Source of the DNA: Candidatus Dormiibacterota bacterium
GTDB lineage: Bacteria > Chloroflexota > Dormibacteria > Aeolococcales > Aeolococcaceae
Assembly: GCA_036833315.1 (NCBI GenBank)
Contig: DAITPY010000008.1
Span: 1 to 50,324 of the forward strand
Length of the DNA: 50,324 bases
Direction of reading: 5' to 3'
Numbering within the stretch: the stretch's first letter is position 1; each line of letters opens with the position of its first letter. The notes beneath the pieces were generated by a model that did not search any database, had not been told where the DNA came from, and saw nothing but the letters and a program-made list of their open reading frames with translations. Both the position numbers and the translations under genes were made by a program. Positions 3,717 through 48,704 of this stretch are shown one piece after another.

Positions 3717-3727
3717 GCCCGCGTCCA

Positions 3728-4255: not shown

Positions 4256-4262
4256 CGACGCG

Positions 4263-4652
4263 TCAGGCCTGAATCTTCGTCCGCAAGCGCTCCACCGCCT
4301 CCGCGAGATCCCACACGGTTTCGAGCGCACCATTGAGCTCGCTCGCCGTCGGTGGCAGCTCGTATATCCGGTGATGGCACGCATTGGACAGGGTCTGCCA
4401 GGTCAGAGTCGCGCGTCCGCCCAGGTCGCGGTCGTTGAGCATCTCTCCAACACAGAGCAGTTGGCAGCGCGTCGATGTCCTCTCCAGCCCGGGCGCGGTC
4501 ACATCCCACAGCCGGGCCATCGCCAGCTCCAGTCCTTGTCGGGCGAGCAAGGCCGCAGCCCGCGGCCACAGGCCGGCGGTCGTGGCGTCGTCATTTCGTA
4601 CCAGATCGCGCGCCGCTGACACCAAGGCATGCGCGTCCACGGTTGCGTTCAT
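4263..4652 (-). CDS. Small helical protein with HEPN-like motifs
   Basis: 129 aa; ARQGLE (R-x3-E) and TLSNACHH (N-x3-H); begins 7 bp after the ATPase stop. Confidence 0.6.
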   Translation of the reverse strand: MNATVDAHALVSAARDLVRNDDATTAGLWPRAAALLARQGLELAMARLWDVTAPGLERTSTRCQLLCVGEMLNDRDLGGRATLTWQTLSNACHHRIYELPPTASELNGALETVWDLAEAVERLRTKIQA

Positions 4653-4659
4653 GCGGTGC

Positions 4660-7098: not shown

Positions 7099-7606
7099 CG
7101 GGTGCCGAGTTGGGAGCCCTTGGCGAGGTGACGCGCTTCAGGACGATCTCGTCGGGCGTCCTCCCGTGATCCACGAAGTAGGTGGCGCGGGTCCCGTCCT
7201 TCTCGAGGTGCACCAGTGACCCGACCTTGAACGTGTCGGCGGGCATGGTCAGCGGAGGAGTCCGCCGGCGCTGGAGCACCTGGGGCGGCGGCGGCGCAGC
7301 AGCTGGCGCCGGCGAGGGCGCGGTCGGGGCGGGCGCCGGTGCGGTCGTCGTCGCCTGGTGCTGGCGGACGTGTTGGCGGTGGACGGTCACTCCGACCGCG
7401 ATCGCGGTCAGCACGAGCACCGGAACGCTTATGTACCAGTGGGTGATGCCGAGCACCAGCACGACACCCAAGACCACGTAGCCGGCGCATCCGATCCCTC
7501 CGGTGGCTCGCGCCGCCTGCCGAACCGCGTGGTGCGGTCGCCTGGCGTACGTCGAGACGCCGCCCCAGAATCCGCCCGGGAGCCGGTGACCGAGATAGAA
7601 GCGCAC
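7091..7606 (-). CDS. Hypothetical membrane protein (two hydrophobic segments, Pro/Ala linker, small C-terminal domain)
   Basis: GTG 7606 gives MRFYLGHRLPGGFWGG...YVVLGVVLVLGITHWYISVPVLVLTAIAVGV. The stop overlaps the ATPase start (ATGCCTGA). Confidence 0.65.
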   Translation of the reverse strand: MRFYLGHRLPGGFWGGVSTYARRPHHAVRQAARATGGIGCAGYVVLGVVLVLGITHWYISVPVLVLTAIAVGVTVHRQHVRQHQATTTAPAPAPTAPSPAPAAAPPPPQVLQRRRTPPLTMPADTFKVGSLVHLEKDGTRATYFVDHGRTPDEIVLKRVTSPRAPNSAPDA

Positions 7607-7669
7607 GCGCCATTCTCGCTCCCGCGCACCGGGCCGCTCCGGCGGCGGACCGGACCCCACAATGGCGAC

Positions 7670-8278
7670 GTGCCCGATCGATCTGACTCTGCTCCACTGC
7701 TGACCGATCGCTTCGCACGAGCCTTCAGCCTTGCGTGGGAGGTCCACGGCCGGCAGTTGCGCAAGAAGACCGGCATCCCCTACATGGCGCATGTGATGTC
7801 GGTGTGCGCCCTCGCTCTCGAGCACGGCGCCGATGAGGACGTCGCCATCGCCGCACTCCTGCACGACACCGTCGAGGACTCGGTCGACGGCGCGTCAACC
7901 CACCGGCGCATTGACGCCGAGTTCGGGGAACGGGTGGCCGGCATCGTCATGGCCTGCAGTGATGCGGTCGCCGTCCCCGGCGCTCCCAAGCCGCCTTGGC
8001 GCGAGCGAAAGGAAAACTACCTTCGTCACCTCGACACCGATGCCGGCGCCGATGTTCTCCTCGTGTCAGCCTGCGACAAGCTCCACAACGCGAGCTCGAT
8101 ACTCGCTGACCTCCGTGTCGAGGGTGACGATGTCTGGCAGCGATTCACGGTCACGGACCCCCATGAGCAACTCTGGTACTACACCAGCGTCGTCGAGATC
8201 CTCCAGCGGCGCCTCCCCGGTCCGTTGACCGACGAGCTCGCTCAGGTCGTCAAGGAGATGGAAGCCCGCGTGCCCTGA
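7670..8278 (+). CDS. HD-domain hydrolase, small alarmone hydrolase (Mesh1/SpoT-HD-like)
   Basis: RKKTGIPYMAH...ALLHDTVED...CDKLHN. Start reassigned to GTG 7670 (CACAAT-N6-GTG). Confidence 0.88.
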   Translation: MPDRSDSAPLLTDRFARAFSLAWEVHGRQLRKKTGIPYMAHVMSVCALALEHGADEDVAIAALLHDTVEDSVDGASTHRRIDAEFGERVAGIVMACSDAVAVPGAPKPPWRERKENYLRHLDTDAGADVLLVSACDKLHNASSILADLRVEGDDVWQRFTVTDPHEQLWYYTSVVEILQRRLPGPLTDELAQVVKEMEARVP

Positions 8279-8321
8279 CGCGACACTGCGGCCGCGGCAG
8301 CGGCGCATATGATGCGCGCCG

Positions 8322-9167
8322 ATGAGCGCATCGCTTCCTCTCGACAATCGCGTCGCGCTGGTCACGGGTTCGAGTCGTGGCATCGGTCGCGCGATGGCGC
8401 TGCGCCTTGCCCGAGAGGGAGCATCGGTGGTGATCACCGGCAAATCGGAGTCGGGCACGGAGAAGCTGCCGGGCAGCATCCACACGGTCGCCGCCGAGGT
8501 CGAGGCGGCCGGAGGCGTTGCACTCGCGGTGCGTGTCGACGTGCGTCATGAGGACGAGGTCGAGGCGATGGTCGACGCCACGGTGGCGCGATTCGGACGT
8601 CTCGACATCCTCATCAACAATGCCGGTGCGCTGTGGTGGCAGCCAATTCTGCAGACACCTCCCAAGCGCTACGACCTGATGTGGGAGATCAACGTCCGTG
8701 CCGCGTATCTCTGCGCCTATTACGCGCTCCCGCACATGGTGCGGCAGCGCTGGGGTCACATCATCAACTGCTCACCCCCGCTCAGCACCCAGCCGAGCCC
8801 AGGGCACGTCGCCTACATGACCACCAAGATGGGGATGACCAGGCTCGCCATCGGCATCGCGGCGGAGCACGCTCCCGACGGCATCGCGTGCAACTCGTTG
8901 TGGCCTGTGACCATCATCGAGAGCCTGGCAAGCATCAATTGGGGCCTCGGCGACCGGAGCCAGTGGCGGTCGCCGGAGATCCTCTGCGACGCGATGATGG
9001 AGATCGTCAGCACCGAGCCACCCACGCTGACCGGGCGGCAAATCCTCGATGAACCCTTCCTCCGCGAGCGGGGCTGGACCGACGAGCGCCTCGACGCCTA
9101 CTGGCTCGAGGGCAAGCCCCCGGAGCACCCCGTGTACATCGACGGGCGATCCGGCTCCTCGATGTAG
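8322..9167 (+). CDS. SDR-family oxidoreductase (HSDL2-like)
   Basis: TGSSRGIG, NNAG and YMTTK motifs. Confidence 0.92.
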   Translation: MSASLPLDNRVALVTGSSRGIGRAMALRLAREGASVVITGKSESGTEKLPGSIHTVAAEVEAAGGVALAVRVDVRHEDEVEAMVDATVARFGRLDILINNAGALWWQPILQTPPKRYDLMWEINVRAAYLCAYYALPHMVRQRWGHIINCSPPLSTQPSPGHVAYMTTKMGMTRLAIGIAAEHAPDGIACNSLWPVTIIESLASINWGLGDRSQWRSPEILCDAMMEIVSTEPPTLTGRQILDEPFLRERGWTDERLDAYWLEGKPPEHPVYIDGRSGSSM

Positions 9168-9205
9168 ATCCAGGCTCCGCGACGGTCCACCCGTATGATC
9201 GAAGC

Positions 9206-10330
9206 ATGAGCCCCACCACCCGAGCCGATCTCATCCGGCGGACCCTGACGGTCGGGGCGATCGGCGCCGGCGCGGTTCTGTCCGCCCGGGTCCTGCTCCG
9301 CCCCCATGTCGAGACCCCGCGCCGCCTGGTCGACTGGGACGAGGTGCGCCGCATCGCGGTCTCGCGCACCGGCGTCCCAACCCGCCGGGGCGCCCTCGAG
9401 ACGACGGCGCTCGAAGGCCGGTACAAGGAGATGGCGGCGCGCGTGGCGCCGCTGATGACCGAGATCACACAGGTCCCGCTCGCGTCGTATCCGCGCTTCG
9501 TCGCCCTCGACCGCGCCGGTTTCATCGACGCCAACCTCGGGATGATCCAGCGACTGCTCGCCCCCGTCGAGCGGCTTCGAGCGCGGGTGCCGGAGTCGAT
9601 GGCGACCGGGATCAGCCGGCGCATGCTCGATCGGTACGTCGGCGAGCTGTTCGGGTTGATGTCGCGCCGCGTGCTCGGTCAGTACGACCCGGTGCTGTCG
9701 ATGGTCGACGATCCCGAGGTCGCCACCCGGCAGGCCGCCCTCTACCTCGTCGAGCCGAACATCGCCGGCATCGAACGCGATCTCGATCTGACCGGCACCG
9801 ATCTCCGGCCCTGGCTCATCCTCCACGAGCTGACCCACGCATGGCAGTTCGAGCTGCATCCGTGGCTCGGCGCGCATCTCGAGGAGCTGATGCGCCGCCT
9901 GATGCTCGACTCGCTGTCCGCCGACGGCGACACCCTGCTGCCGTCGCGCGAGATGGTGCGCAAGCTCCCCGAGACCGTACGCCTGCAGGTCCAGACCGTC
10001 AGACACGTCCAGGCGGTGATGAGCGTCCTCGAGGGCTACAGCAACTTCCTCATGCACCGCGCCGGCCGGCGCAGCATTCGCGGAGCCGACCGGCTCGAGG
10101 CAGCGATGCAACAGCGGCGCCGTCAGCGCGGACCGATGGAGCGGCTCATCCTCACCATCACCGGCCTCGAGATCAAGATGCGCCAGTACGAGGTCGGCGA
10201 GCAGTTCGCGGTCGGGGTCGTCGATCGCGCCGGGCTGAGCACGCTCAACCGCGTCTGGGAGTCGGCGGAGATGATGCCGACGCTCGACGAGTTGCGCAAC
10301 CCGGACCTCTGGGTCCGTCGGGCCGGCTGA
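9206..10330 (+). CDS. Zinc-dependent metalloprotease-like protein (DUF2342/zincin family)
   Basis: LHELTHAWQF zincin motif; MSVLEGYSNF; KMRQYEVG..F. Confidence 0.85.
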   Translation: MSPTTRADLIRRTLTVGAIGAGAVLSARVLLRPHVETPRRLVDWDEVRRIAVSRTGVPTRRGALETTALEGRYKEMAARVAPLMTEITQVPLASYPRFVALDRAGFIDANLGMIQRLLAPVERLRARVPESMATGISRRMLDRYVGELFGLMSRRVLGQYDPVLSMVDDPEVATRQAALYLVEPNIAGIERDLDLTGTDLRPWLILHELTHAWQFELHPWLGAHLEELMRRLMLDSLSADGDTLLPSREMVRKLPETVRLQVQTVRHVQAVMSVLEGYSNFLMHRAGRRSIRGADRLEAAMQQRRRQRGPMERLILTITGLEIKMRQYEVGEQFAVGVVDRAGLSTLNRVWESAEMMPTLDELRNPDLWVRRAG

Positions 10331-10334
10331 AGCA

Positions 10335-10778
10335 GTGCCGATTTCGTCGCCTCCCAGCGTCGCCGACCGGCTCGCGGCCCAGGGACATCGCCTGACACTG
10401 CAACGGATGATCGTGGCCGGCGCCCTCGCCCGAGCCCCCCACACCGTGAGTGCCCAGGAGTTGTACGAGTCGCTGCGCGCCGAGCACCCGCTGCTCGGGC
10501 GCGCCACCGTGTTCCGGACTCTCGACTTCCTCGTCGAAGCCGGCCTGGCCCAGCGCTTCGAGGCTGAGGGCCACGTCCACGTGTACACGTCGTGCGCGGA
10601 CAACCATCACCATCACCTCGTCTGCCGCATCTGTGGATCAACCACGGAGATCGACGACACGGCCGTCAACCAGCTCATCGACGCGGTCCGCGGCGGGTAC
10701 GGATTTGCGCTCGACCACGCCGCCCTGGACTTCTACGGCACCTGCGCGGCATGCGCGGCCTCGCTCGCCGCCACCTGA
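10335..10778 (+). CDS. Fur-family transcriptional regulator (Zur/Fur-like)
   Basis: ATVFRTLDFL, HHHHLVCRIC, YGTCAAC. Confidence 0.93.
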   Translation: MPISSPPSVADRLAAQGHRLTLQRMIVAGALARAPHTVSAQELYESLRAEHPLLGRATVFRTLDFLVEAGLAQRFEAEGHVHVYTSCADNHHHHLVCRICGSTTEIDDTAVNQLIDAVRGGYGFALDHAALDFYGTCAACAASLAAT

Positions 10779-11902
10779 GCGCACCCGCCGTCGCCGTCTG
10801 CGCGCCCAACGCCTTCAAGGGGACCCTCGGCGCCCGGGCAGCCGCGACGGCACTCGGACTCGGAGCCTGCGACGCCGGCGCCCGCGCAATCGCGGTGCCG
10901 GTGGCCGACGGTGGCGACGGCACGCTCGACGTGCTGCTCGCTGGGAGCCCCGGATCCCGCGTGACCCGGCACCGCGTGACCGGCCCCAACGGAACTCCAG
11001 TCGGGGCGCGGCTGGGACGGCTCGCCGGCGGCGAAGCGGTGGTCGAGCTTGCCGAGGCATCCGGGCTCCGGCTCGTGCGGCCCGCGGAGCTCGACCCCGT
11101 GCGCGCCACGTCCCGCGGCACCGGCGAGCTCCTCCGGCTGGCGCTCGACGCTGGGCACACGCGCATCGTGGTCGGCGTCGGCGGGAGCGCCTGCACGGAC
11201 GGCGGTGCCGGCCTGCTTCAGGCACTCGGCGTCCACCTCACCGACTCGCGAGGGCGCGAGATCAGTCCTGGGGGCGCCGGTCTCGAGGATCTCGAGACGA
11301 TCGACCTTTCCGAAATCCACCCAGCTCTCGCGCGCTGCTCCATCGAGGTTGCGTGTGACGTCCGAAGCCCACTGCTTGGCGCGCAGGGGCCCGCGCGCAT
11401 GTTCGCGGCACAGAAGGGCGCGGACCCGGCCGCGATCGAGCGCCTGGAGCGCGCGTTGGAGCATCTCGTGGCGGTCGTCTCCGCGGCCGGCTACGGGGAA
11501 GCGCCCAACCTCCCGGGAGCCGGCGCCGCCGGCGGGTGCGGCTTCGGCCTGGCCTTGATCGGCGCTCGCCTCATGCCCGGCGCCCAAGTCGTGTGCGACA
11601 TGGTCGGCCTCGACGCAGCACTCGCGGGCGCCAGCCTCGTCATGACCGGCGAAGGGCGGCTCGATCTCCAGACCAGGACGGGCAAGGCACCTTCCGAGGT
11701 GGCAGTACGCGCCCGGGCTCTCGGGGTCCGGTGCGTCGCCATCTGCGGCATCGTGCTCGATCCCCTGACCGAGCTCTTCGACGCCGCGATCTCACTGGAT
11801 GGGCTGGATCCAGGCGTGGACCCGAAGCGTCACACGCGAGCGCTGCTGCGCCGGGCTGCGGCCCGGGCCACTCGAGAGGCGCTCGGCGCTCGCGCTCAGT
11901 AG
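10775..11902 (+). CDS. glxK: Glycerate kinase (GlxK/GarK family), probable CTG start
   Basis: APNAFKG, ADGGDGT, GGSACTDGG, GAGAAGG, GEGRLDLQT..GK motifs. CTG 10775 overlaps the Fur TGA. Confidence 0.9.
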   Translation: MSAPAVAVCAPNAFKGTLGARAAATALGLGACDAGARAIAVPVADGGDGTLDVLLAGSPGSRVTRHRVTGPNGTPVGARLGRLAGGEAVVELAEASGLRLVRPAELDPVRATSRGTGELLRLALDAGHTRIVVGVGGSACTDGGAGLLQALGVHLTDSRGREISPGGAGLEDLETIDLSEIHPALARCSIEVACDVRSPLLGAQGPARMFAAQKGADPAAIERLERALEHLVAVVSAAGYGEAPNLPGAGAAGGCGFGLALIGARLMPGAQVVCDMVGLDAALAGASLVMTGEGRLDLQTRTGKAPSEVAVRARALGVRCVAICGIVLDPLTELFDAAISLDGLDPGVDPKRHTRALLRRAAARATREALGARAQ

Positions 11903-12855
11903 ACCGGCGTCAACCAGGCCGCGTACTTCGGATCGCGGCCGGTGACCACCTTCGAGTACGTGTCCTGGACGCGCATCGTCAGCGGTCCGGGCTCGCCGTC
12001 GCCGATGCGACGCCGGTCGATTTCGATGACCGGGGCTACCTGGGCGCCGGTGCCGACCAGGAACACCTCGTCAGAGATATAGAGCTCGGAGCGATCCACG
12101 GTTCGCTCCAGCACGTCGAGCCCGAGCTCCTCTCGCACCAGGTGCATGACCAGCGAGCGCGTGATCCCTTCGAGGATGTTGTCCGACGGGGGCGGTGTGA
12201 TCACCTCGCCGCGGCGCACGATGAAGATGTTCTCGGCGCTGCCCTCGCAGACGTGACCATCGCCGGACAGCATGATCGCCTCATCGAATCCGCCCTGCAG
12301 GGCCTCGCTTTTCGCCAGCGCCGAGTTCACGTAGAGGCCGGTGCACTTGGTACGGACGGGGGCCATCGAGTCGTCGATTCGCCGCCACGACGAGACCATG
12401 CAGCGGATCCCTCCATTGCCGACGTACAAGCCCATCGGGGCGGTGACGATCGCAAAGCTGTCCTCGACATCGTGCAGTTTCACGCCGATGATCTCGGCCG
12501 ACTTGAACGACAGCGGGCGGACGTAGACGTCCTCCCGGTACTCGTTGCGCCGGAGCAGATCGAGGGTGGTCTCGGTGAGCTCCTCGATCGTCCAGGGAAT
12601 CACCATCTGCAGGGATCGAGTGTTCTGCAGCATGCGCTCGTAGTGCTGGGGCACGCAGAGCGCAAAGAGCTGCTCGCGATCCGCATTCCAGTAGCCGCGG
12701 ATGCCTTCGAACACGCCGGTGCCGTAATTGAGCCCGTGCGTGAGCAGGCCGACCTTGGCATCGGCGTAGCGAACGATTTCGCCGTTGAAGAATACCCAGG
12801 ACTTCTCGCGCAGTGACGTGGCCTCGGCCATGGGAACGGGAGCGGTTTGAGTCAT
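11896..12855 (-). CDS. ilvE: Branched-chain amino acid aminotransferase
   Basis: LNYGTGVFEGIR, TKCTGLYVNS, EGSAENIF, ILEGITR, GTGAQV. Start ATG 12855 (TACGCT-N7). Confidence 0.95.
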   Translation of the reverse strand: MTQTAPVPMAEATSLREKSWVFFNGEIVRYADAKVGLLTHGLNYGTGVFEGIRGYWNADREQLFALCVPQHYERMLQNTRSLQMVIPWTIEELTETTLDLLRRNEYREDVYVRPLSFKSAEIIGVKLHDVEDSFAIVTAPMGLYVGNGGIRCMVSSWRRIDDSMAPVRTKCTGLYVNSALAKSEALQGGFDEAIMLSGDGHVCEGSAENIFIVRRGEVITPPPSDNILEGITRSLVMHLVREELGLDVLERTVDRSELYISDEVFLVGTGAQVAPVIEIDRRRIGDGEPGPLTMRVQDTYSKVVTGRDPKYAAWLTPVY

Positions 12856-13014
12856 CAGCCACAGCGTACAACCACCGGCGGCCGAGGCCGGCGATATCCG
12901 CTCATGCGCGGGACCCTTTGGTATGCTCGCGAGGTCCGGAAACACCTGGTGAATGACGATCGTGGTCAAGCGGGGGATCGCGTCCAGGAACATCGCCAGG
13001 GTATTGGAGGTGTC

Positions 13015-14574
13015 ATGACCGACGTCATCAAGGCCCACGGGAGCACCCTGCCCGCGGCTCGCAGCATCCGCTGGGACCCGTCGCCCGCGGAGCTGCGCGA
13101 GTTGACGTCGCGCATGCCGAACGCACGGCACACCGAGTTTGACAACTACAACGTGCAGACCAGGGTCGTCTCCCGCAGCAAGGCGAGCACGTACGTGGTC
13201 ACCGACAGACCCGAGGAGCACTCCGACCAGACCATGAGCCGCGCCGACGGCGCGAAGATCGCCGAGCGCCAGGACGCGTACATCCGTGACCAGGAGATGC
13301 TGGTCATCGACGGATTCATCGGCAACGACCCTGATCGGCGCGTCGCCGCCCGTCTGTACATCGAAGCCGCCAACGCCAACATCGCCGGCATGCAGCGCTG
13401 GCTGTACTTCGATCCCGAGAACCCCGGCCCTGATTTCGAGCCTGTCCTGACAGTCATCTACACCCCCAATCTCGACGCCCCCGGGTACCCGAACGATCGT
13501 GTCATCGCCGTCGACCTCGAGGCCGGGGTGACACGCGTCCTGAACAGCGACTACTTCGGTGAGTCCAAGAAGGGCGGCCTCCGCATGTGGAACAAGCTCA
13601 CCTACGACCAGGGCGGCCTCTCCCTGCACGCCGGGTGCAAGGTGGTGCCCACCGCGCGTGGCGAGCAGGCGCTGCTGATCATCGGCTTGTCGGGAACCGG
13701 CAAGACCACGACGACCTTCACCCGCCAGAACGACAGCAAGCCGGTGCAGGACGACTTCGTCGCGCTGTACCCGGGCGGCCGCATCGTCGCTACCGAGAAC
13801 GGCTGCTTCGCGAAGACCTTCGCCCTGGATCCGAAAGACGAGCCGTCCATTCACGGCGCCGTGTGCAAGCCCGAGGCATACCTGGAGAACGTCTCGCAGG
13901 ATGACCAGGGTGTCGTGGATTTCTTCGACACCGGCTACACACCCAACGGTCGCGCGGTGTTTCGCATGGATGCGCTCGGATGGCACAAGGACGCGCGCGA
14001 GATCAACTCTGTCGATCACTTCCTGATCCTCAATCGCAACGACAATCTCATTCCCGGCGTCGCTCGCCTGAACCGGGAGCAGGCGGCGCTGTACTTCATG
14101 CTTGGGGAGACGCGGGGAACGTCGGCGGGCGGCAAGGAGGAAGCGGGTAAGTTTCTGCGCGTTCCCGGCACCAATCCGTTCTTCCCGCTGCGCCACGAGC
14201 AACAGGGGAATCGCTTCCTGGAGCTCATGGACAGTAGCGACTTTCAGGTCTATCTGCTCAACACGGGCCGGGTCGGTGGGACGGACGACGACGATCGCGG
14301 CAAGAAGGTGTCCATCTCCTACTCGAGCGCGATCGTGAAAGCCATCTCCGAGGGCACCATCGCGTGGGAGACGGACCCGGACTTCGGATATGAGGTCGCG
14401 GTATCGCTGCCCGGCCTCGACGACCCGGAGATTCTCCAACCCCGCAAGCTGTACGAGCGGCAGGGACGGATGGACGAGTACCGGGCTCTGGTCGACCGGT
14501 TGAAGTCCGAGCGGCGCGCCTACCTGGCCACATTCCCCGGCCTTCGCGCCGAGATTGTCAGCGCGATCGCCTAG
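13015..14574 (+). CDS. pckA: Phosphoenolpyruvate carboxykinase (ATP)
   Basis: YFGESKK, LHAGC, GLSGTGKTT, QDD, ENGCFAKT, NTG motifs; SD GGAGG before ATG 13015. Confidence 0.93.
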   Translation: MTDVIKAHGSTLPAARSIRWDPSPAELRELTSRMPNARHTEFDNYNVQTRVVSRSKASTYVVTDRPEEHSDQTMSRADGAKIAERQDAYIRDQEMLVIDGFIGNDPDRRVAARLYIEAANANIAGMQRWLYFDPENPGPDFEPVLTVIYTPNLDAPGYPNDRVIAVDLEAGVTRVLNSDYFGESKKGGLRMWNKLTYDQGGLSLHAGCKVVPTARGEQALLIIGLSGTGKTTTTFTRQNDSKPVQDDFVALYPGGRIVATENGCFAKTFALDPKDEPSIHGAVCKPEAYLENVSQDDQGVVDFFDTGYTPNGRAVFRMDALGWHKDAREINSVDHFLILNRNDNLIPGVARLNREQAALYFMLGETRGTSAGGKEEAGKFLRVPGTNPFFPLRHEQQGNRFLELMDSSDFQVYLLNTGRVGGTDDDDRGKKVSISYSSAIVKAISEGTIAWETDPDFGYEVAVSLPGLDDPEILQPRKLYERQGRMDEYRALVDRLKSERRAYLATFPGLRAEIVSAIA

Positions 14575-14586
14575 TCGACGGGTTAT

Positions 14587-15195
14587 GTGATCGACGCCGG
14601 CGACGTCGTCACGACGCGTGACCTGGTGCTGGCGTTCCTCACGCCGCTCGCGAAGCGTGACTGGGCGGCGCCGATCCCGGACCTGGAATGGGACTGCGAG
14701 ACGACCCTGCGCCACATGATCAGAGCGCAGTCCATCTATGCGGCGCATCTTGCGACCCGCGCGAAGCAACGCCTGCCTCTGTCACGCGAGGTTGACCCCG
14801 GGCTCGGCATCGATGCGCTCCTCGAGAACCTGCGCTCGCAAGTCTCGATACTTGCGGCGGTCATCCGCGACGCGCCGCCAGAGGCGCGTGCCTGGCACAA
14901 CTCGGGTATGACCGACCCCTCCGGCTACTGCGCGATGTCCTGCGACGAATTGCTCGTCCATACCTGGGATATCGGGCGCGGGTTCGGGACGTCGTTCGAT
15001 CTGCCCGTTGCGGTGTGCGCGCGGGTGGTGTCGCGGCTCTTTCCGATGTGGATGCCGATCGAAGCTGACCCTCGCGAAGCACTCCTCTGGTGCAACGGGC
15101 GGATCGCATTGTCCGATCGTCCACGGCAGGGCGAAGACTGGGGATGGTGGTCGCGACCGCTCGAGGAGTGGGACGGGACCGACCCGGACGCGTAG
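14587..15195 (+). CDS. DinB-superfamily / MDMPI N-terminal-domain protein
   Basis: W...TLRH and ELLVHTWDI metal-binding pattern. Confidence 0.75.
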   Translation: MIDAGDVVTTRDLVLAFLTPLAKRDWAAPIPDLEWDCETTLRHMIRAQSIYAAHLATRAKQRLPLSREVDPGLGIDALLENLRSQVSILAAVIRDAPPEARAWHNSGMTDPSGYCAMSCDELLVHTWDIGRGFGTSFDLPVAVCARVVSRLFPMWMPIEADPREALLWCNGRIALSDRPRQGEDWGWWSRPLEEWDGTDPDA

Positions 15196-15273
15196 CCGGC
15201 CTTGCGATTGAGCTCTGCGTTCGCGACGCTGACCGAGGCCGAGGCGGCTCACGGCCACACATCGCGCTGGCGT

Positions 15274-15918
15274 TCAGCTAGCGTCGTGGCAGAAGTGGAT
15301 CTTCGCCGGCGAGCGCGACCGCAGACCTTCGAGCGTCTGGTGCCAAATCTCGACATCCTCGGCTTGCCCTGGCGGTAGCTTCGATGTGGCCGTGGCTTGA
15401 TCCCAGACCGCACGCGTATAGGCCGCGTCGCCGATGAACAACTCGGTCCCAGACTCGGTCGTCGCGATCACCGACTGATGTCCTGACGTGTGACCCGGTG
15501 TCCTCACCAGATGCAGGTCGTCGGCGAGTCTGACGTCGCCTCCAACCAGATCGAACTGCATACCTGAGGCCTCGATCCATCCGGTGATCTCGTCGCGCTC
15601 GCGGAAAATCCGCTCGTACTCCGTCCGCTGGACGAGGAGCGGCGCATGTTGGAAGGCGACGTTCTGTCCGCAATGATCGAAATGCAGGTGCGTGTTGATC
15701 ACCATGCGCACGTCGATCGGCGCGAGGCCGTGCACCGCGAGCGCATCGGCGACGGTGCGATTGACGACGCGGTATTCGCGCAGCACCGCGTCCGGTCCGC
15801 CGCACCCGGTGTCGACCAGCAGCACGCCGAGTTCCTCGTGCAAGATCACGAAGCCGTGCACCGGCCACCGGCTGCCCTCGATGTAGAGGTGTCCGAGGTC
15901 GAGGCGCTTGATCTGCAT
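15274..15918 (-). CDS. Metallo-beta-lactamase-fold hydrolase (N-acyl-homoserine lactonase-like)
   Basis: LVDTG, THLHFDHCG, TPGHTSGH, GDA motifs; start ATG 15918. Confidence 0.88.
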   Translation of the reverse strand: MQIKRLDLGHLYIEGSRWPVHGFVILHEELGVLLVDTGCGGPDAVLREYRVVNRTVADALAVHGLAPIDVRMVINTHLHFDHCGQNVAFQHAPLLVQRTEYERIFRERDEITGWIEASGMQFDLVGGDVRLADDLHLVRTPGHTSGHQSVIATTESGTELFIGDAAYTRAVWDQATATSKLPPGQAEDVEIWHQTLEGLRSRSPAKIHFCHDAS

Positions 15919-41806: not shown

Positions 41807-42634
41807 TCAGGACGGAGCAGCCGTGCGCTGGCCCTGCCCGACCCCGAGCGGGAGCGACAGGCAGCGCACGCCGCCGCCCGCCTTGAGAAACTCGCCCATG
41901 GGCAGGGGCAGGATCGTGAAGCCGGCGGAGCGCAGGGGGGCGGCCAGCTGCGCGATGGTGAGCGAGGAGACCACCTGGCCGTCGACCGGCATCGCGTTGC
42001 ACGCGAAGCCTGCCGCCACCTCCACCGACACCTCGATCAGGTTCGGGACGAGCTGGCGGATCAGCCGAGCCGACTCCTCCGAAAAGGCGTCGGGAGCGGC
42101 GAGCACGGTGGTGGCGTCGAGCGGACAGAAGCAGGTGTCCAGGTGGTAGAAGCGCGAATCGACGAGTTCCAGGGACACCACCTCGACCTCGAGAATGCGT
42201 GCCACCGGGCGGTGCGATTCGCGATCGGTCCGGAATCCGGAGCCGCAGAACAGGCGATCGCCGACGAAGAGCGCATCGCCGGCGCCCTCGAACGACAGGG
42301 ATCGGGGCAGCTCATGGACCTCGAACCCCAGGCGCTCCAGCTCCCGCCGCCAGTGGGGCTCCTCGCCGGCGCGCTCCGCGTGGTGGAAATTGCTGAGCAC
42401 GGCTCTGCCGTCCCAGAGCACCGCCGCGTTGGCCGTGAAGACCATGTCCGGCAAACCGGCGACGGGCTCGGCGAGTTCGATCGCAAGCCCGAGATCGAGA
42501 TAGGTGCGATGCAGCGCGTCCCATTGCGCCTGCGCGAGCGCGTGGTCGACCTGCACCGCCACGTGCATCCAGGGATTGATCTCGTACTCGATCCCGTAAT
42601 GGTCCGGCCGGCACATGAGCACCGCACCGGTCAT
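41807..42634 (-). CDS. Amidinotransferase / dimethylarginine dimethylaminohydrolase-family protein
   Basis: YEINPWM, PDMVFTAN, FEGAGD, FYHLDT, GGGVRCL. Confidence 0.9.
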   Translation of the reverse strand: MTGAVLMCRPDHYGIEYEINPWMHVAVQVDHALAQAQWDALHRTYLDLGLAIELAEPVAGLPDMVFTANAAVLWDGRAVLSNFHHAERAGEEPHWRRELERLGFEVHELPRSLSFEGAGDALFVGDRLFCGSGFRTDRESHRPVARILEVEVVSLELVDSRFYHLDTCFCPLDATTVLAAPDAFSEESARLIRQLVPNLIEVSVEVAAGFACNAMPVDGQVVSSLTIAQLAAPLRSAGFTILPLPMGEFLKAGGGVRCLSLPLGVGQGQRTAAPS

Positions 42635-43740
42635 GCGCGCGGCCGAGGCAGGAGCGTGGAATCACCCAGAGGGAGGGGCACGAGCAGGGTCGGGGCGAAT
42701 CCGGCGTGGCGCCCCGCCGCGGGTGGCGGGACGGCAGGCCGGCGCAGGCACCAGCGCGGATCCACGTCGTCGCGCACCGCGGCCAGCGCCGGATGCAGCA
42801 GCGTGCCGCGCGCGGCACGTCCCTGATGCCGGACCGTGGCGGTGAGCGCCGGTCTCAGCCAGGTCGCATCGACCGGCTGCACACCCTCGAGCATCGCCGC
42901 GCCAACCCGGAGGGCGAATGCGCGCTGCCCCAGCCAGCGGCTGACCATCAGTTCCTGCGGACCCTCGACCTGTCCCGCGAAGACGAGACGCCCGGCGACG
43001 TGCTCCCCGAGGATCAGCCGCGCCGTCCCGCGGCGTCCCTGCTCGATCCCGGCGATCACGCAAGTGGTCTGATCCGTGAGCTGGATGCGCAGCCGGTCCG
43101 GCGATGCGACCCCGGGTCGGTAGGGGGCCGATCCCCGCCGCGCGATCAGCGCCGGCAGGTCGCGAGCGGTGGCCGCAGCAGCCAGTGCGCAACCTCGACC
43201 GCGGACGTGATCGGGTACCTGGAGCACGTCCCCTTTGCCGGCGAACTCGCGCAGCGCATCGAGGCGCCTGTCCAGGGTCCATCCGGTGGTTGGACGGCCA
43301 TCCAGGTGGAGGACGTCGAAGGCAAGGTACACCGCGGGGAGATCCGCGGCGAGCGCCGGACCGGCGGCGAGACGCCGTCCGAGAGCGGCGAGATCCGGGC
43401 GTCCCTGGGCGTCGAGGACCGCGATGACGCCGTCGAGCACAGCCGCGCGGCGTGGCGGTATCGCCAGCGTTTCGGAGACGTCCGGGAAGCGGCGAGCAAG
43501 ATCGCGGAGGGTCTCTCCCTGGAGGCGGACCGGGCCACCAGGATCGAGGTAGAGCAGCGAGCGGGCTCCGTCCCAGTCGATGCTGAACAGCCAGTCGAGG
43601 TCGTCGAACGGCTCGGCGCAGGGCACCGACGCCTCCAGCGGTATGTGTCCCGGCAGCAACGGCGGCGTCGGCGTCCGGAAGAGCAGCGGCTCGGCGAGCG
43701 CCGTCGCGGCGGCGCGAGACGCTCCCGCCCTGGTCGACAC
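42631..43740 (-). CDS. ATP-dependent DNA ligase homolog lacking catalytic residues (pseudo-ligase)
   Basis: Collinear with the LigD ligase+OB domains, but motif I reads FSIDWDG (no Lys) and motifs III, IV and V are degenerate. Confidence 0.8.
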   Translation of the reverse strand: MSTRAGASRAAATALAEPLLFRTPTPPLLPGHIPLEASVPCAEPFDDLDWLFSIDWDGARSLLYLDPGGPVRLQGETLRDLARRFPDVSETLAIPPRRAAVLDGVIAVLDAQGRPDLAALGRRLAAGPALAADLPAVYLAFDVLHLDGRPTTGWTLDRRLDALREFAGKGDVLQVPDHVRGRGCALAAAATARDLPALIARRGSAPYRPGVASPDRLRIQLTDQTTCVIAGIEQGRRGTARLILGEHVAGRLVFAGQVEGPQELMVSRWLGQRAFALRVGAAMLEGVQPVDATWLRPALTATVRHQGRAARGTLLHPALAAVRDDVDPRWCLRRPAVPPPAAGRHAGFAPTLLVPLPLGDSTLLPRPRA

Positions 43741-43757
43741 CCCTGTTCCGCGAAGCC

Positions 43758-44618
43758 TCAGGAGGCCCGGCGGCGGCGGGCCGGTTCCACCGATTCGGCC
43801 TCGTCGGAGGCGGCTTCCTCGGCGTCGGCGCTCTCGGAGCGGCGCGACTTCGCCGCTTCGACCGAGGCTTTGAGCGCGGCCATGAGGTCGGTGACCTTGC
43901 CCTGCTCCGGAGCCTCCGGCCGTTCCAGAGGTTGGTTGTTCAATTTCGCTTCGACGACCTGGATCAGGGCTTCGCGATAGGCGTCGTGATAGCGGGCGGG
44001 GTCGAAGTGCGCGCTGAGGTTTTCGATGAGCATCACCGCCATGTCGAGCTCGCCCTTCTTGAGGTCGGCGTCCTCGGCAGGGATGCTCAGCTCCCCCGCG
44101 GAGCGGATCTCGTCTGGCCAGTGGAGGGTGTTGAGCAGCAGGCCCGTCTCATGGAGCGCAAGCCGGCAGAGGTGTTCGCGGTCGCGGAGCGCGATCTTGC
44201 CGATGGCGACCATGCCGGTCTTCTCGAGGGCCTGGCGCAGGAGGGCGTAGGGCTTCGCGCCGACCGCCTCAGGCTCCAGGTAGTACGCGCTCTTGAGGTA
44301 GACGCCGGCTTCGATCTCCGAGTCCGGGCAGAACTCCACGATCTCGATCGTGTGCGTGGTGGTCAGGGGGAGATGGTCGAGGTCGGAGTCGCTGACGACG
44401 ACGTACTCGTCCTTGCCGACCTCGTAACCGCGAAGCGCGTCGCTCCAGCCGATCTCGCGATCCTCCTCCGGACACCAGCGCTTGTTGCGCACCGGCGTCT
44501 GGTCGTTCGGACACAGCAACCGGAACGAGACGCTCTTCGATTCGGTCGCCAGGTACAGCCGCACGGGAATTGCCACCATGCCGAAGCTGATGGCCCCGCG
44601 CCACATCGATCGAGGCAT
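43758..44618 (-). CDS. ku: Ku NHEJ DNA-end-binding protein
   Basis: MPRSMWRGAISFGMVAIPV, YYLEP, KPYALL, TLHWPDEIR, YHDAYRE, DLMAALKAS. Confidence 0.96.
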   Translation of the reverse strand: MPRSMWRGAISFGMVAIPVRLYLATESKSVSFRLLCPNDQTPVRNKRWCPEEDREIGWSDALRGYEVGKDEYVVVSDSDLDHLPLTTTHTIEIVEFCPDSEIEAGVYLKSAYYLEPEAVGAKPYALLRQALEKTGMVAIGKIALRDREHLCRLALHETGLLLNTLHWPDEIRSAGELSIPAEDADLKKGELDMAVMLIENLSAHFDPARYHDAYREALIQVVEAKLNNQPLERPEAPEQGKVTDLMAALKASVEAAKSRRSESADAEEAASDEAESVEPARRRRAS

Positions 44619-44663: not shown

Positions 44664-45185
44664 TCAGGCGGCGGCGAGCAGCCGGTCGTACGCGATCTTC
44701 AGCTCCGGGTAGCGCAGGAAGATGATGTGCGCGTACTCCTGGGTCAGTGGCACCGGCTTGCGCCGCAGTTGGAGTCCCACCTCCTCCGGACGGTGGTTCG
44801 CCTTGCGCCAGTTGCACTTCCGGCAGGCGATCACCACGTTGTCCCAGCGGTCGGGTGCGCCACCACGCGACACCGGGATGACATGGTCCACGGTGAGCTC
44901 GGCGGCGCTGCCGAGACGGCCGCAGTACTGGCACGTGTGGTCGTCGCGCAGGAGCAGGTTGCGACGATTGGGACGGAGCAGCCGCCGCGGCACATGGATG
45001 GTGCGGAGCAGGCGGACGATGACCACGCCGTCAGGCAGGCGACGCCCGGCGAGTGCCTCGGCTGCTGACCGCTCGGCAGCCTCGTCAACGAACGCCACCC
45101 GCTCCTTGGTCAGGAGTACCACCAACCGCCGGTGACTGATCACGTTGAGCGGCTGCATCGAGGCGTTGAGCAGCAGCACTGCCAT
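44664..45185 (-). CDS. HNH endonuclease (McrA-like)
   Basis: LLLNAS, RDDHTCQYCG, TVDHVIP, CRKCN..K; TAGAAT-N6-ATG. Confidence 0.92.
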   Translation of the reverse strand: MAVLLLNASMQPLNVISHRRLVVLLTKERVAFVDEAAERSAAEALAGRRLPDGVVIVRLLRTIHVPRRLLRPNRRNLLLRDDHTCQYCGRLGSAAELTVDHVIPVSRGGAPDRWDNVVIACRKCNWRKANHRPEEVGLQLRRKPVPLTQEYAHIIFLRYPELKIAYDRLLAAA

Positions 45186-45229: not shown

Positions 45230-45844
45230 TCACGTGTAGGGGGCGGACTTGATCGGGCCGACCTTGAAGGCGCCGGCGCACACACCGCTCAGCGCCGTCG
45301 CAGTCACGTCGGTCTGGAACCCGGAGGTTGGAAGGGTGACCTGCCAGTACTTCGGCGATACGGCCGACGGCGCGGGACAAACGTCGGTCCACCAGACGAG
45401 GAAGTAGCCATGTCCCGTCGCGCCGACCGCGCCGAGCGGCTCCGTGCCCGGGGCGAGGTCGACCGGTCCAGGAGAAGCCAGGGAGTTGTCATTGGTCCAG
45501 GTGTCCGGCAGCTTCGCTCCGCTCGACGACAGCATCTGCAGATGCGCGTAGCCGTTCTCAGTGCAGTCACTCGTCGAGGTATTGCGAATCTCGAAGGTCG
45601 CGTAGATGGTGCCGGCGGCACCCTGCTGATTGTTGATGGTGATATCGAACTGCCCGGGCTTGCACGGCAGCGCAGGGGTCGCGGTTGGCGTCGGTGTGGG
45701 TATCGGCGCGACAGTCGGCGTCGCCGTGGCCACGGAGGTCGCCGACGGGGTCGCGGTCGGCGTCGTATTCGACGAATCGGAACCGCAGGCCGACAGAGCG
45801 CTCCCCCCCACGACAGCTGCGAGCGCAACGAGCCACCGGTGCAT
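45230..45844 (-). CDS. Lipoprotein with a DUF4232-like domain
   Basis: Lipobox LSAC, Thr/Pro linker, C..G..GAAG...N.S..DC...GY pattern; start ATG 45844. Confidence 0.75.
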   Translation of the reverse strand: MHRWLVALAAVVGGSALSACGSDSSNTTPTATPSATSVATATPTVAPIPTPTPTATPALPCKPGQFDITINNQQGAAGTIYATFEIRNTSTSDCTENGYAHLQMLSSSGAKLPDTWTNDNSLASPGPVDLAPGTEPLGAVGATGHGYFLVWWTDVCPAPSAVSPKYWQVTLPTSGFQTDVTATALSGVCAGAFKVGPIKSAPYT

Positions 45845-45884
45845 AGCGCTGGAGCGTACCCGCTGCGGGCGGATCATGCGCACC

Positions 45885-48704
45885 TCACGCGTGTCCCGGC
45901 AGGTCCTGGTCGGCGTGCAGCACCGGCGCGAAGAGGTCGCCTTTTTCCGCGACCCGCGCGGCGATCGAGGCGATCGTCCAGCGATCGGGACGCAGCTCCG
46001 GATCGTCGAGCTCCTCCCATGCGATGGGCGTGGACACCGGAGCTCCTGGCGCCGGGCGCAGCGAATAGGGCGCTGCGAGCGTCTTGTTGATGATGTTCTG
46101 CGTGTAGTCGATGCGGATGCGCCCGGTTCGTTTGGCGACCGCCCACTCCCAGCTCACCCGTCCGGGAGCAGCCTGGTCGATCGCGCGGCCGACCTCCTCG
46201 ACCCAGTTGCGCACCGCCGTGTAGTCCGGTCCACGCCGGACCGGGACGTAGATCTGCAGGCCGGTCTGTCCACTCGTCTTGACGACGCCGTGCATCGCGT
46301 AGTGGTCGAGCGCTGCTTTGACGAGCTTGGCGATGTCGATGACGTCACCAAACGTCGCCGGCTCGAAGGGATCGAGGTCGAAGACGGCCCAATCCGGCTG
46401 GTTGGGCTCGTCGATTCGCGAATGCCACGGGTGCAGATCGATCACGCCCGCGTTGGCCACCCACGCGAGGGTCGCGATCTCGTTGACGACGATGTACGTC
46501 TTGGTCTTCTCGCCGTGGTACGTCCACGAGTCGATCCAGGCCGGTGCGTGCGCCGGTTTGTCCTTGCGCCAGAACGATTTGCCATCGATACCATCGGGGA
46601 ACACCTGCATCGAGAGCGGGCGGTCGCGAAGGTACGGCAGCATGTGACCGGCCATGCGCACGTAGTACTCGATCATGTCGCGCTTAGTAAGTCCATCTGC
46701 CGGCCACAGCACCTTGTCCAAATTGGTGAGTGGTAGGCGGCGGCCTGCGATCTCCCAGTGCGCGTTGCCGTGCAGCGTGCGGAGGATTTCCAGCGCATTG
46801 ATGATGCCCGGGTCCTGTCTCCTTGGGGGCCCCTCCCCGCCTTCGCGCTTGGTCTCCTTAGGTTTGTCGTCTTTGCTGGAGGGCGACGCATCCTCGTCGC
46901 CAAGCACTCCGGCGGCGCTGCCCCCCAAGGAGCCACCCGGACTCTTCTTTGCTGAAGTCGCTCCTTCTTGGACCATATCCCGCTTGTGAGGGCGCGATCG
47001 CCGACTGCGCGATGCGCCAACTACGGCCGATGCCGTCGCCGGCGATTCGCGGAACGTGTCTTCGATGCGTTGGTCGAGTCGCAGGGTTCTGAATGCGGGG
47101 TGGCGAAGCATGCCTTCGCTGGTCCACTCGGAGAAGCGGACCTCGCACACGAGCTCCGGCTTCACCCAGGTCGCGGGTTCCGATGTTTTCGGGACGGGGT
47201 CGATTGGGCTCGTGTCGACGACGAGCGGACGGAGCCGTTCCTTGAGGTCGCGCAGGGTTTTGTCGTCGAAACCGGTCCCGACCTGGCCGCAGTGGACCAG
47301 GCGGCCGTCGTCGAAGAGGGCGAGGATGAGGGCGCCGAGCTGATTGGCGCGCCGCCCGCGACCCGCCGTGTAGCCGACGATCACGCACGACTGGCTGCGC
47401 CAGGATTTGATCTTCACCCAGTCCGGGGTGCGCAGTCCAGGGCGGTACGGCGAGTCGGCGCGCTTGCCCACGATGCCCTCGATGCCTGACTTGCGCGCCT
47501 CCTCGAACAGCGCGACGCCGTCGCGTTCCACGTGCTCGGCAAAGAGGACGTGCGGCGAGTCGACAATGGTTTCGCGGAGTGTCTTCTTGCGAATGCGCAG
47601 CTCGGTGGCGAGCAGGTCACGGCCCTCGAGTTGCAGGAGGTCGAACGCCACGAAGGTCACCGGGTGCTCGGCGGCGACGCGACGAACGTCGACGTCACGG
47701 TGCACGTTGATGCGCTGCTGCAGACGCTCGAAGGACGGACGGCCGTCGACGTCGAGCACGACCAGCTCACCGTCGACGACGGCCTGTCGCGCGCGGATGC
47801 CCGTGCGAATCGCCTGCGCCTCCGGATAGCGCGGCGTCTCGTCGCCACCCCGCCTGCCGGTGATGCGAACGGCGTCCCCCGCGACGCTGACCATGGCGCG
47901 GATGCCGTCGTATTTCAACTCGAAGATCCATCCCTCCTGGGAGAAGGGCTTGTCGACCGGCGTGGCCAGCATCGGAGCCGGCGCCGGCGCGGGCTCGTCG
48001 CTCCCCGCCGCCGGACGGGGTGGCGGAGGTTCTCCGCGAGCGCGGGCGCGCCGCATCTCACGAGGATCACCACCGGCCTCGGCCGCGATCTCTGCCAGGC
48101 TTCTGCCGGTCTTGACGGAAACATCGAGGTCGATCGCCTCGAATCCCTCCACCACCGAGGCGTCGCGCTTCTTGAGCATCAGCCAGTTCTTGGTGCCGTC
48201 GCTGCTCCCCCCGTACTGGCGGCCGCGGTCTCCGATGTGGATGAGCGCGAACTCACCCGTGAGCTTGGAGCCGTACAACCGGAACTTGAGGTCGCCGGCC
48301 TTCAGGGAACGCTCGTAGTCCGCCGCGGTCTCCTTGATCCACTCGAAGGTGCCGATATCCCAGAGCATCACCGTCCCGGCGCCGTATCCGGAGGGGATGA
48401 CGCCCTCGAATTCGCCGTAGTCGATGGGATGGTCCTCGGTCTGGACGGCGAGCCGCTTCCTGGCTGGATCCAGTGTCGGGCCTCTCGGAATCGCCCACGA
48501 GAGCAGCACACCATCGTGTTCGAGCCGGAAATCGAAGTGCATGCGCGTGGCTCGATGTTTCTGCACGCAGAACCGTTGGCCGTGGGGGAGGAGATCCCAG
48601 GCCGAACGCTCCTCGTCCGAGCGCCCGACGGGGTCCCCGCTGGGCTCGGGCGTCTGTTTGAAATCGCGCTTTCGGCGGTATTCTTCGAGAGTACCTTCAG
48701 CCAC
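45885..48704 (-). CDS. ligD: DNA ligase D, phosphoesterase-ligase-polymerase order
   Basis: PE: VQKHRATRMHFDFRLE. LIG: FELKYDG, EGIVGK, WVKIK. POL: LTNLDKVLWP, VFDLDP, KTSGQTG. Confidence 0.96.
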   Translation of the reverse strand: MAEGTLEEYRRKRDFKQTPEPSGDPVGRSDEERSAWDLLPHGQRFCVQKHRATRMHFDFRLEHDGVLLSWAIPRGPTLDPARKRLAVQTEDHPIDYGEFEGVIPSGYGAGTVMLWDIGTFEWIKETAADYERSLKAGDLKFRLYGSKLTGEFALIHIGDRGRQYGGSSDGTKNWLMLKKRDASVVEGFEAIDLDVSVKTGRSLAEIAAEAGGDPREMRRARARGEPPPPRPAAGSDEPAPAPAPMLATPVDKPFSQEGWIFELKYDGIRAMVSVAGDAVRITGRRGGDETPRYPEAQAIRTGIRARQAVVDGELVVLDVDGRPSFERLQQRINVHRDVDVRRVAAEHPVTFVAFDLLQLEGRDLLATELRIRKKTLRETIVDSPHVLFAEHVERDGVALFEEARKSGIEGIVGKRADSPYRPGLRTPDWVKIKSWRSQSCVIVGYTAGRGRRANQLGALILALFDDGRLVHCGQVGTGFDDKTLRDLKERLRPLVVDTSPIDPVPKTSEPATWVKPELVCEVRFSEWTSEGMLRHPAFRTLRLDQRIEDTFRESPATASAVVGASRSRRSRPHKRDMVQEGATSAKKSPGGSLGGSAAGVLGDEDASPSSKDDKPKETKREGGEGPPRRQDPGIINALEILRTLHGNAHWEIAGRRLPLTNLDKVLWPADGLTKRDMIEYYVRMAGHMLPYLRDRPLSMQVFPDGIDGKSFWRKDKPAHAPAWIDSWTYHGEKTKTYIVVNEIATLAWVANAGVIDLHPWHSRIDEPNQPDWAVFDLDPFEPATFGDVIDIAKLVKAALDHYAMHGVVKTSGQTGLQIYVPVRRGPDYTAVRNWVEEVGRAIDQAAPGRVSWEWAVAKRTGRIRIDYTQNIINKTLAAPYSLRPAPGAPVSTPIAWEELDDPELRPDRWTIASIAARVAEKGDLFAPVLHADQDLPGHA

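Follow-up and report, generated by a model that had tools for sequence, protein, structure and literature searches.

A ligase-fold protein without the adenylation lysine is retained next to ku in Candidatus Dormibacterota: a putative non-catalytic component of bacterial non-homologous end-joining

The DNA considered here, referred to throughout as the window, is a stretch of 50,324 nt from contig DAITPY010000008.1 of the assembly GCA_036833315.1 (Candidatus Dormiibacterota bacterium). Between 41.8 and 48.7 kb of the window lie six genes, all on the minus strand, of which the fifth in the direction of transcription is the subject of this study. It occupies 42631..43740 (-), begins with a GTG start and encodes a 369 aa protein, defined by its open reading frame (ORF) and by matches to TIGR02779 and PF01068, which has the ligase fold and lacks the lysine that is adenylated in ligases; we refer to it as the pseudo-ligase. 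Immediately upstream is ku (43758..44618 (-)), encoding a protein of 286 aa (TIGR02772, 285 bits; PF02735, 141 bits), and the spacer between the two genes (43741..43757 (-)) measures exactly 17 nt from the TGA stop of ku to the GTG start, as had been given in a first-pass annotation made from the sequence alone. That annotation placed the pseudo-ligase at 42631-44618, an interval that does contain its ORF but also spans ku. Further upstream are genes for an HNH endonuclease of 173 aa (44664..45185 (-); PF01844), for a DUF4232 protein of 217 aa identified by a library profile match (45230..45883 (-)), and for LigD itself (45885..48704 (-)), a 939 aa protein with the phosphoesterase-ligase-polymerase arrangement according to Pfam and NCBIfam. 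On the downstream side, the pseudo-ligase stop is overlapped by the ATG of a dimethylargininase/arginine-dihydrolase-like (DDAH-like) gene (41807..42634 (-); approximately 270 bits, slightly below the NCBIfam cutoffs), the two sharing the sequence ATGA at 42631-42634. A consensus scan between the genes of this cluster revealed no promoter-like and no same-strand terminator-like site, the terminator-like count being not above shuffled expectation. An antisense ORF (42706-43980 (+)) of 424 aa with 17 % Arg additionally runs across the pseudo-ligase and the terminal part of ku; it is typical of the spurious frames of high-GC DNA and could be called as a gene in error.

The pseudo-ligase displays 32 % identity to the ligase domain of the window's LigD (blastp E=9e-37), and matches TIGR02779 (NHEJ_ligase_lig, the ligase of non-homologous end-joining, NHEJ) with an E-value of 1.3e-36 and 126.4 bits, below the model's cutoff of 227.75. 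The structures of Mycobacterium tuberculosis (Mtb) LigD, 6NHX (E=2.4e-17) and 1VS0, are likewise retrieved, at E-values of approximately 1e-17 to 1e-16. Curated cutoffs are also missed for TIGR02776 (101 vs 373) and PF04679 (20.2 vs 27.5); the sole ligase model that the protein passes is PF01068, and this only marginally (28.3 vs 26.2 bits). A confident AlphaFold2 model based on 31 aligned family members (pLDDT 84.7, pTM 0.84) has the architecture of a nucleotidyltransferase (NTase) domain followed by an OB fold, and its best Foldseek matches are 6nhx, 6nhz and 1vs0, with E-values of about 1e-22 to 1e-24. The NTase-like domain, with its remodelled nucleotide pocket, spans approximately residues 37-220 (43081..43632 (-)), as delimited by contact mapping. 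The OB-fold domain covers approximately residues 224-326 (42763..43071 (-)), as judged from a PF04679 match over residues 237-325, the model and column conservation, and ends in VRDDV where motif VI would be expected. Structural parts of LigD are preserved within three of the ligase motifs, namely D-G-x-R in motif I, D-G in motif III and D-x-L in motif IIIa. The 369 aa frame, previously described as intact through the OB fold, is so, and runs on into a conserved tail of 40 residues.

What has been lost is the catalytic apparatus. The motif I Lys of ligases (KxDGxR) is the nucleophile that forms ligase-AMP. In the pseudo-ligase the motif I remnant FSIDWDGAR (residues 52-60; 43561..43587 (-)) retains Asp57, Gly58 and Arg60, with Asp55 (codon gac, 43578..43576) aligning to the adenylated Lys481 of Mtb LigD; the corresponding heptapeptides read FSIDWDG in the pseudo-ligase, FEGKWDG in Mtb LigD and FELKYDG in the LigD of the window. 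Alignment thus bears out the first-pass reading of WLFSIDWDGAR (residues 50-60) against WIFELKYDGIR, with Asp at the adenylated Lys, and equally the differences reported for motif III (DGVIA vs DGELV), motif IV (PALIAR vs EGIVGK) and motif V (RLRIQ vs WVKIK). When the ATP, AMP and Mg contacts of Mtb LigD (PMC8656161) are mapped onto the protein, nine of the ten ATP- or Mg-contacting side chains are replaced, and only the equivalent of R486, which contacts the ribose, survives as Arg60. For the adenine contacts, E479 has become Ser53 and K618 has become Arg201; the nucleophile K481 is Asp55; R501 (gamma-phosphate/ribose) is Glu76 and E530 (ribose) is Val105. The catalytic Mg ligand E613 corresponds to Pro196, a position that is P, A, S, V or T across the family, whilst of the remaining phosphate contacts R629 (phosphates) is Ala212, K635 (alpha/gamma-phosphate) is Arg218 and K637 (alpha-phosphate) is Gln220, the last varying between A, P and Q.

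Many of these replacements are themselves conserved. Among the approximately 111-113 sequences covering the respective columns, Ser53 is found in 103, Asp55 in 106 and Glu76 in 108, and Val105, Arg201, Ala212 and Arg218 occur in 116, 121, 110 and 113 of 121 members, respectively. The pocket has been remodelled to a new fixed state, in which the charge reversals K481 to D and R501 to E should repel the phosphates of ATP. The 'AFD'-position aromatic of motif IIIa, which in ligases stacks on the adenine, is Phe in just 37 of the 120 homologues. Across the 119 columns that are identical in two true LigD ligases, the pseudo-ligase keeps 51 of the 109 ordinary positions vs one of the ten ATP/Mg contacts (one-sided Fisher P=0.023), so the proposal that losses are concentrated on catalytic positions holds moderately. 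A nucleophile relocated elsewhere in the protein can be excluded, as there is no conserved Lys column in the family and 57 of its 121 members are entirely Lys-free; Lys scarcity was used solely for this purpose. The presence of a single Lys in 369 residues was also considered as a signal of its own, and this was rejected because the window's proteome is Lys-poor in general, several proteins having 0.4-0.8 %, so that the depletion is no more than mildly unusual (P about 0.01). Overall, the predicted proteins of the window contain approximately 1.75 % Lys vs 9.6 % Arg, with a GC content at third codon positions (GC3) of approximately 0.8-0.9. Since nucleophile, metal and phosphate contacts and profile cutoffs all fail, the protein should, on sequence grounds, not be filed as an NHEJ ligase.

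Loss of the Lys is a property of the whole family. A search of 5.8 billion proteins listed 120 homologues of 49-94 % identity, whose named sources are metagenome-assembled genomes (MAGs) of Candidatus Dormibacterota. In the 110 that cover motif I, the position of the Lys is occupied by Asp in 105 and by Glu in 5, and by Lys in none. The residue is also missing in two sets of genomic loci from species-representative genomes: the 75 obtained by scanning one genome per GTDB species, for which neighbouring genes were mapped, and the 76 reached by starting from Ku. In all, more than 130 loci, each from a different species representative, contain the pseudo-ligase. No full-length copy is truly disrupted (0/63), the single apparent stop being the natural terminus of a shorter orthologue. 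Apparent frameshifts affect four copies, all in long-read MAGs, and three of the four loci also show a split in one of the neighbours (LigD, Ku, HNH, DUF4232 or HK).

Selection on the gene was assessed by Nei-Gojobori dN/dS (omega), using matched pairs within the same loci, stratified by dS and summarised as medians. Values for the pseudo-ligase were 0.138 for pairs with dS < 0.3 and 0.136 for those with dS 0.3-0.6, compared with 0.105 and 0.136 for the LigD ligase domain, 0.062 and 0.132 for Ku, and 0.028 and 0.051 for HNH. An all-pair estimate (omega 0.44) was dropped, being inflated by synonymous saturation in this GC3-rich lineage. Constraint on the pseudo-ligase is therefore similar in strength to that on the neighbouring active LigD ligase domain. 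The first-pass annotation had held that the protein is a retained pseudoenzyme rather than a product of random decay, and had named consistent loss of the Lys in orthologues and a dN/dS below 1 as the observations that would speak for this. Both are now available, with Lys in 0/110 homologues and a median omega of approximately 0.14 for pairs with dS < 0.6 (LigD domain approximately 0.10-0.14, Ku 0.06-0.13); together with the intact ORFs they support that view well. Given its homology to an enzyme family, the loss of essential catalytic residues and the purifying selection acting upon it, the pseudo-ligase qualifies as a pseudoenzyme in the usual sense of the term.

The genomic setting of the pseudo-ligase is conserved. 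The order LigD-(DUF4232)-HNH-Ku-pseudo-ligase-(DDAH-like) is kept across the family, down to approximately 41-46 % identity, and Ku lies directly upstream at every locus with enough flanking DNA. The short spacing recurs too, with gaps in tblastn comparisons of 21-22 nt (stop codon included) in most close loci. When the scan is reversed, and begins from Ku proteins of 66-90 % identity, a Lys-less ligase is directly downstream in 76/76 informative loci of the Candidatus Dormibacterota lineage and absent in none. LigD is found within the same cluster wherever the upstream DNA extends far enough, and in 40/40 loci it retains the Lys of motif I, the Glu of motif III, the Glu and Lys of motif IV and both Lys of motif V, meaning that an active-type sealing enzyme is always at hand. 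In five loci (L001, L010, L011, L024 and L039) an insertion of approximately 3.7 kb separates HNH from Ku, leaving the adjacency of Ku and pseudo-ligase undisturbed; in L001, the one locus examined in this respect, it carries two opposite-strand genes with ABC-transporter ATPase domains. The link between Ku and the pseudo-ligase is thus the tightest of the cluster.

The remaining genes are attached to varying degrees. DUF4232 is present in most clusters, not all, and the DDAH-like gene follows the pseudo-ligase in most loci at a distance of 0-2 kb and is absent in several. No gene of the cluster is more conserved than HNH, which shows 94-97 % identity across closer loci in which Ku is approximately 87 % and the pseudo-ligase approximately 70 % identical, and has an omega of 0.03-0.05; its family, for which McrA/HNH is the sole annotation, extends throughout the Dormibacterota. 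A reading of the cluster as a defence system was considered and set aside, as neither the pseudo-ligase nor Ku nor the DDAH-like protein had a match in PADLOC, and HNH matched at the level of generic HNH domains only. One long-read MAG (L043, about 2900-15400) carries two LigD-DUF4232-HNH-Ku-pseudo-ligase clusters in inverted, head-to-head orientation with several genes split; the inverted duplication may be genuine or may have arisen in assembly.

Beyond the OB fold, the protein carries a conserved C-terminal extension (42646..42753 (-)), recognised by column conservation and pLDDT. Its 40 residues follow the pattern W330-C331-x-x-R334 ... P340 ... F348-x-P-T-L-L-x-P-L-P-L-G-D ... L-P365, and their information content per column is as high as that of the core. 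The tail is nonetheless predicted to be disordered, pLDDT falling to about 60 at residues 341-360 and 40 at residues 361-369. As conservation here coincides with predicted disorder, the F-x-P-T-L-L-x-P-L-P-L segment looks like a candidate docking peptide, or short linear interaction motif, whose partner may be Ku, LigD or another protein. Three cysteines of the pseudo-ligase (C41, C227 and C331) are invariant or nearly so. The first resides within V-P-C before the NTase core and the last within W-C after the OB fold, and at neither position do the two LigD ligase domains used for comparison have a Cys; a disulfide or metal site joining the termini might be formed by these residues.

An exhaustive profile search over 1.84 billion cluster representatives placed the family within a wider set of relatives. 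Members with Asp or Glu at the Lys site, and occasionally N or G, form about 24 clusters (50 % identity) that score approximately 278 bits or more, apart from truncated or partially aligned entries; the best outsider reaches 224 bits and is followed by a continuum of true ligases. Among the nearest outsiders, stand-alone proteins with Arg or Ala in place of the Lys immediately follow Ku in further MAGs of Dormibacterota and Chloroflexota, and in four of these loci an active phosphoesterase-ligase type LigD follows. No match to the DDAH-like gene, and none to HNH, was found in the loci of this group. A further group, with Met at the site, follows Ku in Chloroflexia and Dehalococcoidia. In a Dehalococcoidia/Chloroflexota group, whose residues were read from a MAFFT alignment against Mtb LigD, proteins approximately 50 % or more identical to the query have Leu in 51 cases, Lys in 43, Ile in 21 and Met in 4, and most of the other ATP contacts are still intact. 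Three Lys-less Dehalococcoidia members (Leu or Ile) lie beside a LigD gene with Ku within approximately 4 kb; the LigD is a full three-domain gene at two of these loci and is called in fragments at the third. The Lys-less groups linked to Ku or LigD correspond to our loci L076-L094, L096, L099, L101 and L202-L204. A tail related to that of the pseudo-ligase (RPDVxPxxC ... LPxLP[LF]) is present in several other Lys-less groups. In Bacillota, archaeal and Planctomycetota loci, by comparison, the Ku-adjacent ligase keeps its Lys.

Since Dehalococcoidia members with and without the Lys are approximately 50 % identical, their alignment suggests repeated and recent losses, and the variety of replacements among Ku-linked stand-alone ligases (D, R, A, M, L and I) suggests more broadly a recurrent route rather than a single event. 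In a rough neighbour-joining tree, which carries no bootstrap support values, the pseudo-ligase falls within a clade of stand-alone Ku-linked ligases from Dormibacterota and Chloroflexota and not with the LigD domain of the window. The earlier description of the protein as a paralogue of LigD hence stands as regards its homology to NHEJ ligase domains, but not if it is taken to mean a recent copy of the resident gene. The simplest history is that catalysis disappeared, apparently on more than one occasion, from an ancestral active ligase encoded next to ku, in lineages also possessing a complete LigD, and that the protein was kept all the same. The family represented in the window is the most thoroughly remodelled endpoint of this process of Lys loss. 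Separately, Limnocylindrales and Chloroflexi MAGs encode further Lys-less proteins with the motif I sequence FEP[S/N/A]WGG[R/H]R (L110-L112, L117, L121, L122 and L124). Their similarity to the query is confined to its NTase half, the flanks fetched contain no Ku, and they may be another, different lineage of dead ligases.

As to what the pseudo-ligase does, we lean, by a modest balance of probability, towards a non-catalytic subunit of NHEJ that serves as a constitutive partner of Ku and plays a positive, organising role. In the mechanism envisaged, the protein would descend from an active stand-alone ligase gene adjoining ku, and adenylation would have been given up after the chemistry of sealing had become available from a three-domain LigD, the protein being kept for a second job. 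That loss would have comprised the exchange of the nucleophilic Lys for Asp, the charge reversal of two phosphate-binding basic residues and the disappearance of the Glu residues that bind metal and ribose. The pseudo-ligase and Ku would be made from the same transcript, and the former might dock on Ku (or LigD) via its C-terminal F-x-P-T-L-L-x-P-L-P-L peptide, leaving the ligase-fold body to engage the broken end or the repair complex, and thereby to keep ends in place or arrange them for the active LigD, in the manner of catalytically dead Lig4 in eukaryotes, which supports synapsis and the joining carried out by another ligase. A positive role is favoured because coupling to ku is universal and the gene persisted after an independent ligase had become available, a pattern expected of an ancestral ligase that was already doing structural work. 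There are precedents. Lig4 without catalytic activity still promotes repair, and it stimulates Lig3 (PMC9638927); in mycobacteria LigC backs up a defective LigD ligase domain (as stated in PMC5124664).

Several points count against this interpretation. In the AlphaFold2 model the OB domain is closed over the former nucleotide pocket, rather than in a DNA-clamping conformation, and the best structural matches by TM score are 6nhx and 6nhz (the closed, ATP-bound form of the Mtb LigD ligase), 2cfm and 3gde. Two of the four arginines of the motif Ia region are lost, and isoelectric points across the family range from 5.5 to 11.8 with a median of 8.5, such that a uniformly basic DNA-binding surface is not evident. 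Descent from a Ku-linked ligase is drawn from the rough tree described above, and we infer, rather than observe, that the protein binds Ku, LigD or DNA and that it promotes joining. A wider formulation asks for more, and is offered tentatively, as something we would sooner doubt than accept: that Dormibacterota and part of the Chloroflexota possess a three-component NHEJ system, in which a structural ligase is an obligate, tail-docked partner of Ku that organises ends for LigD, and that this arrangement arose repeatedly by inactivation of an ancestral Ku-adjacent ligase.

The same linkage and the same evidence of selection would be produced by a negative regulator or end-protector, which competes with LigD for Ku or for 5′-phosphate ends and so restrains mutagenic joining, or blocks resection, until conditions are right. 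A ligase fold that does not seal is a natural competitive occupant of a ligase site, and the closed conformation of the model does not suggest productive clamping of DNA. The near-fixed position 17-22 nt after ku, however, points to co-production of the two proteins, as would be expected of an obligate subunit more than of an inhibitor that can be switched on and off, and an inhibitor would be expected to have a patchier distribution than the 76/76 observed. We accordingly regard a regulatory function as unlikely, albeit the best placed of the alternatives.

Lower still is the probability we attach to a repurposed active site, in which the pocket (D55, D57, E76, D103, R60, R201 and R218) would bind a new ligand or metal and serve another reaction, or sensing, at DNA ends, for example recognition or removal of 5′-adenylates or metal-dependent end processing. 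Conservation of the replacement residues is at the level usual for catalytic residues, and the change of Lys to Asp creates a D-x-D pair in motif I. Against this, R, A, M, L or I is found at the site in sister groups that occupy the same genomic position, and these groups are without E76, so the acidic cluster is not required for the role that is shared by the Ku-linked proteins. Nor does the pseudo-ligase match any family beyond ligase in Pfam, NCBIfam or PADLOC, and to our knowledge no nucleotidyltransferase-fold enzyme uses such an acidic site.

Translational coupling could instead tie the protein to its downstream neighbour, in which case it would work with the DDAH-like enzyme in a function outside NHEJ, and adjacency to ku would be purely historical. 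The ATGA overlap of stop and start, and the occurrence of the DDAH-like gene after the pseudo-ligase in most family loci, lend this some substance, but that gene is variably placed or absent, whereas adjacency to Ku is invariant, and the Lys-less Dehalococcoidia relatives lie beside LigD and Ku without any such enzyme, which makes the proposal rather improbable. Finally, a functionless relic in slow decay, or a real gene in the antisense ORF (42706..43980 (+)), would account for the missing catalytic residues and for the 424 aa frame, respectively, yet is scarcely credible: the relic is effectively refuted by the selection analysis (omega of approximately 0.14, 0/63 copies disrupted, and conservation across the phylum down to approximately 41 % identity, the rare split matches being in long-read MAGs where neighbours are generally split too), and the antisense product is 17 % Arg whereas it is the minus-strand frame that carries the ligase homology.

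Comparison with known systems helps to define what a non-catalytic NHEJ subunit of this type would be. With the ligase domain of LigD, or a stand-alone NHEJ ligase, the pseudo-ligase shares the NTase and OB folds, sequence homology and the niche next to ku; it differs in having no adenylation Lys, nine of ten contacts replaced, an extra tail and, relative to the two LigD ligase domains compared above, C41 and C331. LigC (NF006078; mycobacterial/actinobacterial) is likewise a stand-alone ATP-dependent ligase-domain protein that coexists with LigD, but is catalytically active as a backup or base excision repair ligase, and the pseudo-ligase matches its model with only 65 bits (cutoff 296) and is missing the catalytic residues. 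XLF, PAXX and APLF are Ku-binding accessory factors with C-terminal docking peptides. The likeness of the pseudo-ligase to these lies in a folded body with a short, conserved and disordered terminal peptide and in the genetic tie to Ku; there is no relation in sequence or fold, and its own peptide, a candidate Ku binder, is hydrophobic and Pro-rich. A functional parallel may be seen in inactive DNA ligase IV (K273A), a non-sealing ligase-fold protein that supports the repair complex whilst another ligase finishes the reaction (PMC9638927), much as an intact LigD always accompanies the pseudo-ligase. Lig4 K273A is, however, an engineered point mutant with XRCC4-binding BRCT domains, whereas the pseudo-ligase is natural, separately encoded and has a remodelled pocket, its structural role being inferred. 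Prozymes, such as that of trypanosomatid deoxyhypusine synthase (PMC3663545), also represent a dead paralogue kept beside a live enzyme, although heteromerisation with LigD, or activation of it, is only conceivable for the pseudo-ligase by analogy.

In the full-text literature searched, including a structural review of LigD and two comparative studies of NHEJ, no Lys-less ligase paralogue within bacterial NHEJ loci is described, subscription-only papers being outside the scope of this search. We thus found no prior description of a naturally evolved, separately encoded dead version of an NHEJ ligase. A problem of annotation is also brought to light: several sources name the relatives 'bifunctional NHEJ protein LigD', 'non-homologous end-joining DNA ligase' or 'DNA ligase', and surveys of NHEJ based on domain presence (e.g. 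bioRxiv 10.1101/869602) would count pseudo-ligases as ligases.

Bacterial NHEJ is taught as a two-protein system of Ku and LigD. That a pseudo-ligase is fixed beside ku throughout a phylum, under selection as strong as that acting on the active enzyme, implies that the ligase fold has a function other than catalysis, and one worth encoding separately; this challenges the two-component picture in a major soil phylum whose members are uncultured. It also provides a natural and separable system in which to consider the 'structural role of ligase', which in eukaryotes has been probed only by means of engineered Lig4 mutants. Should the three-component arrangement prove true, the pseudo-ligase would be a bacterial counterpart of both the non-catalytic role of Lig4 and scaffolds of the XRCC4/XLF type.

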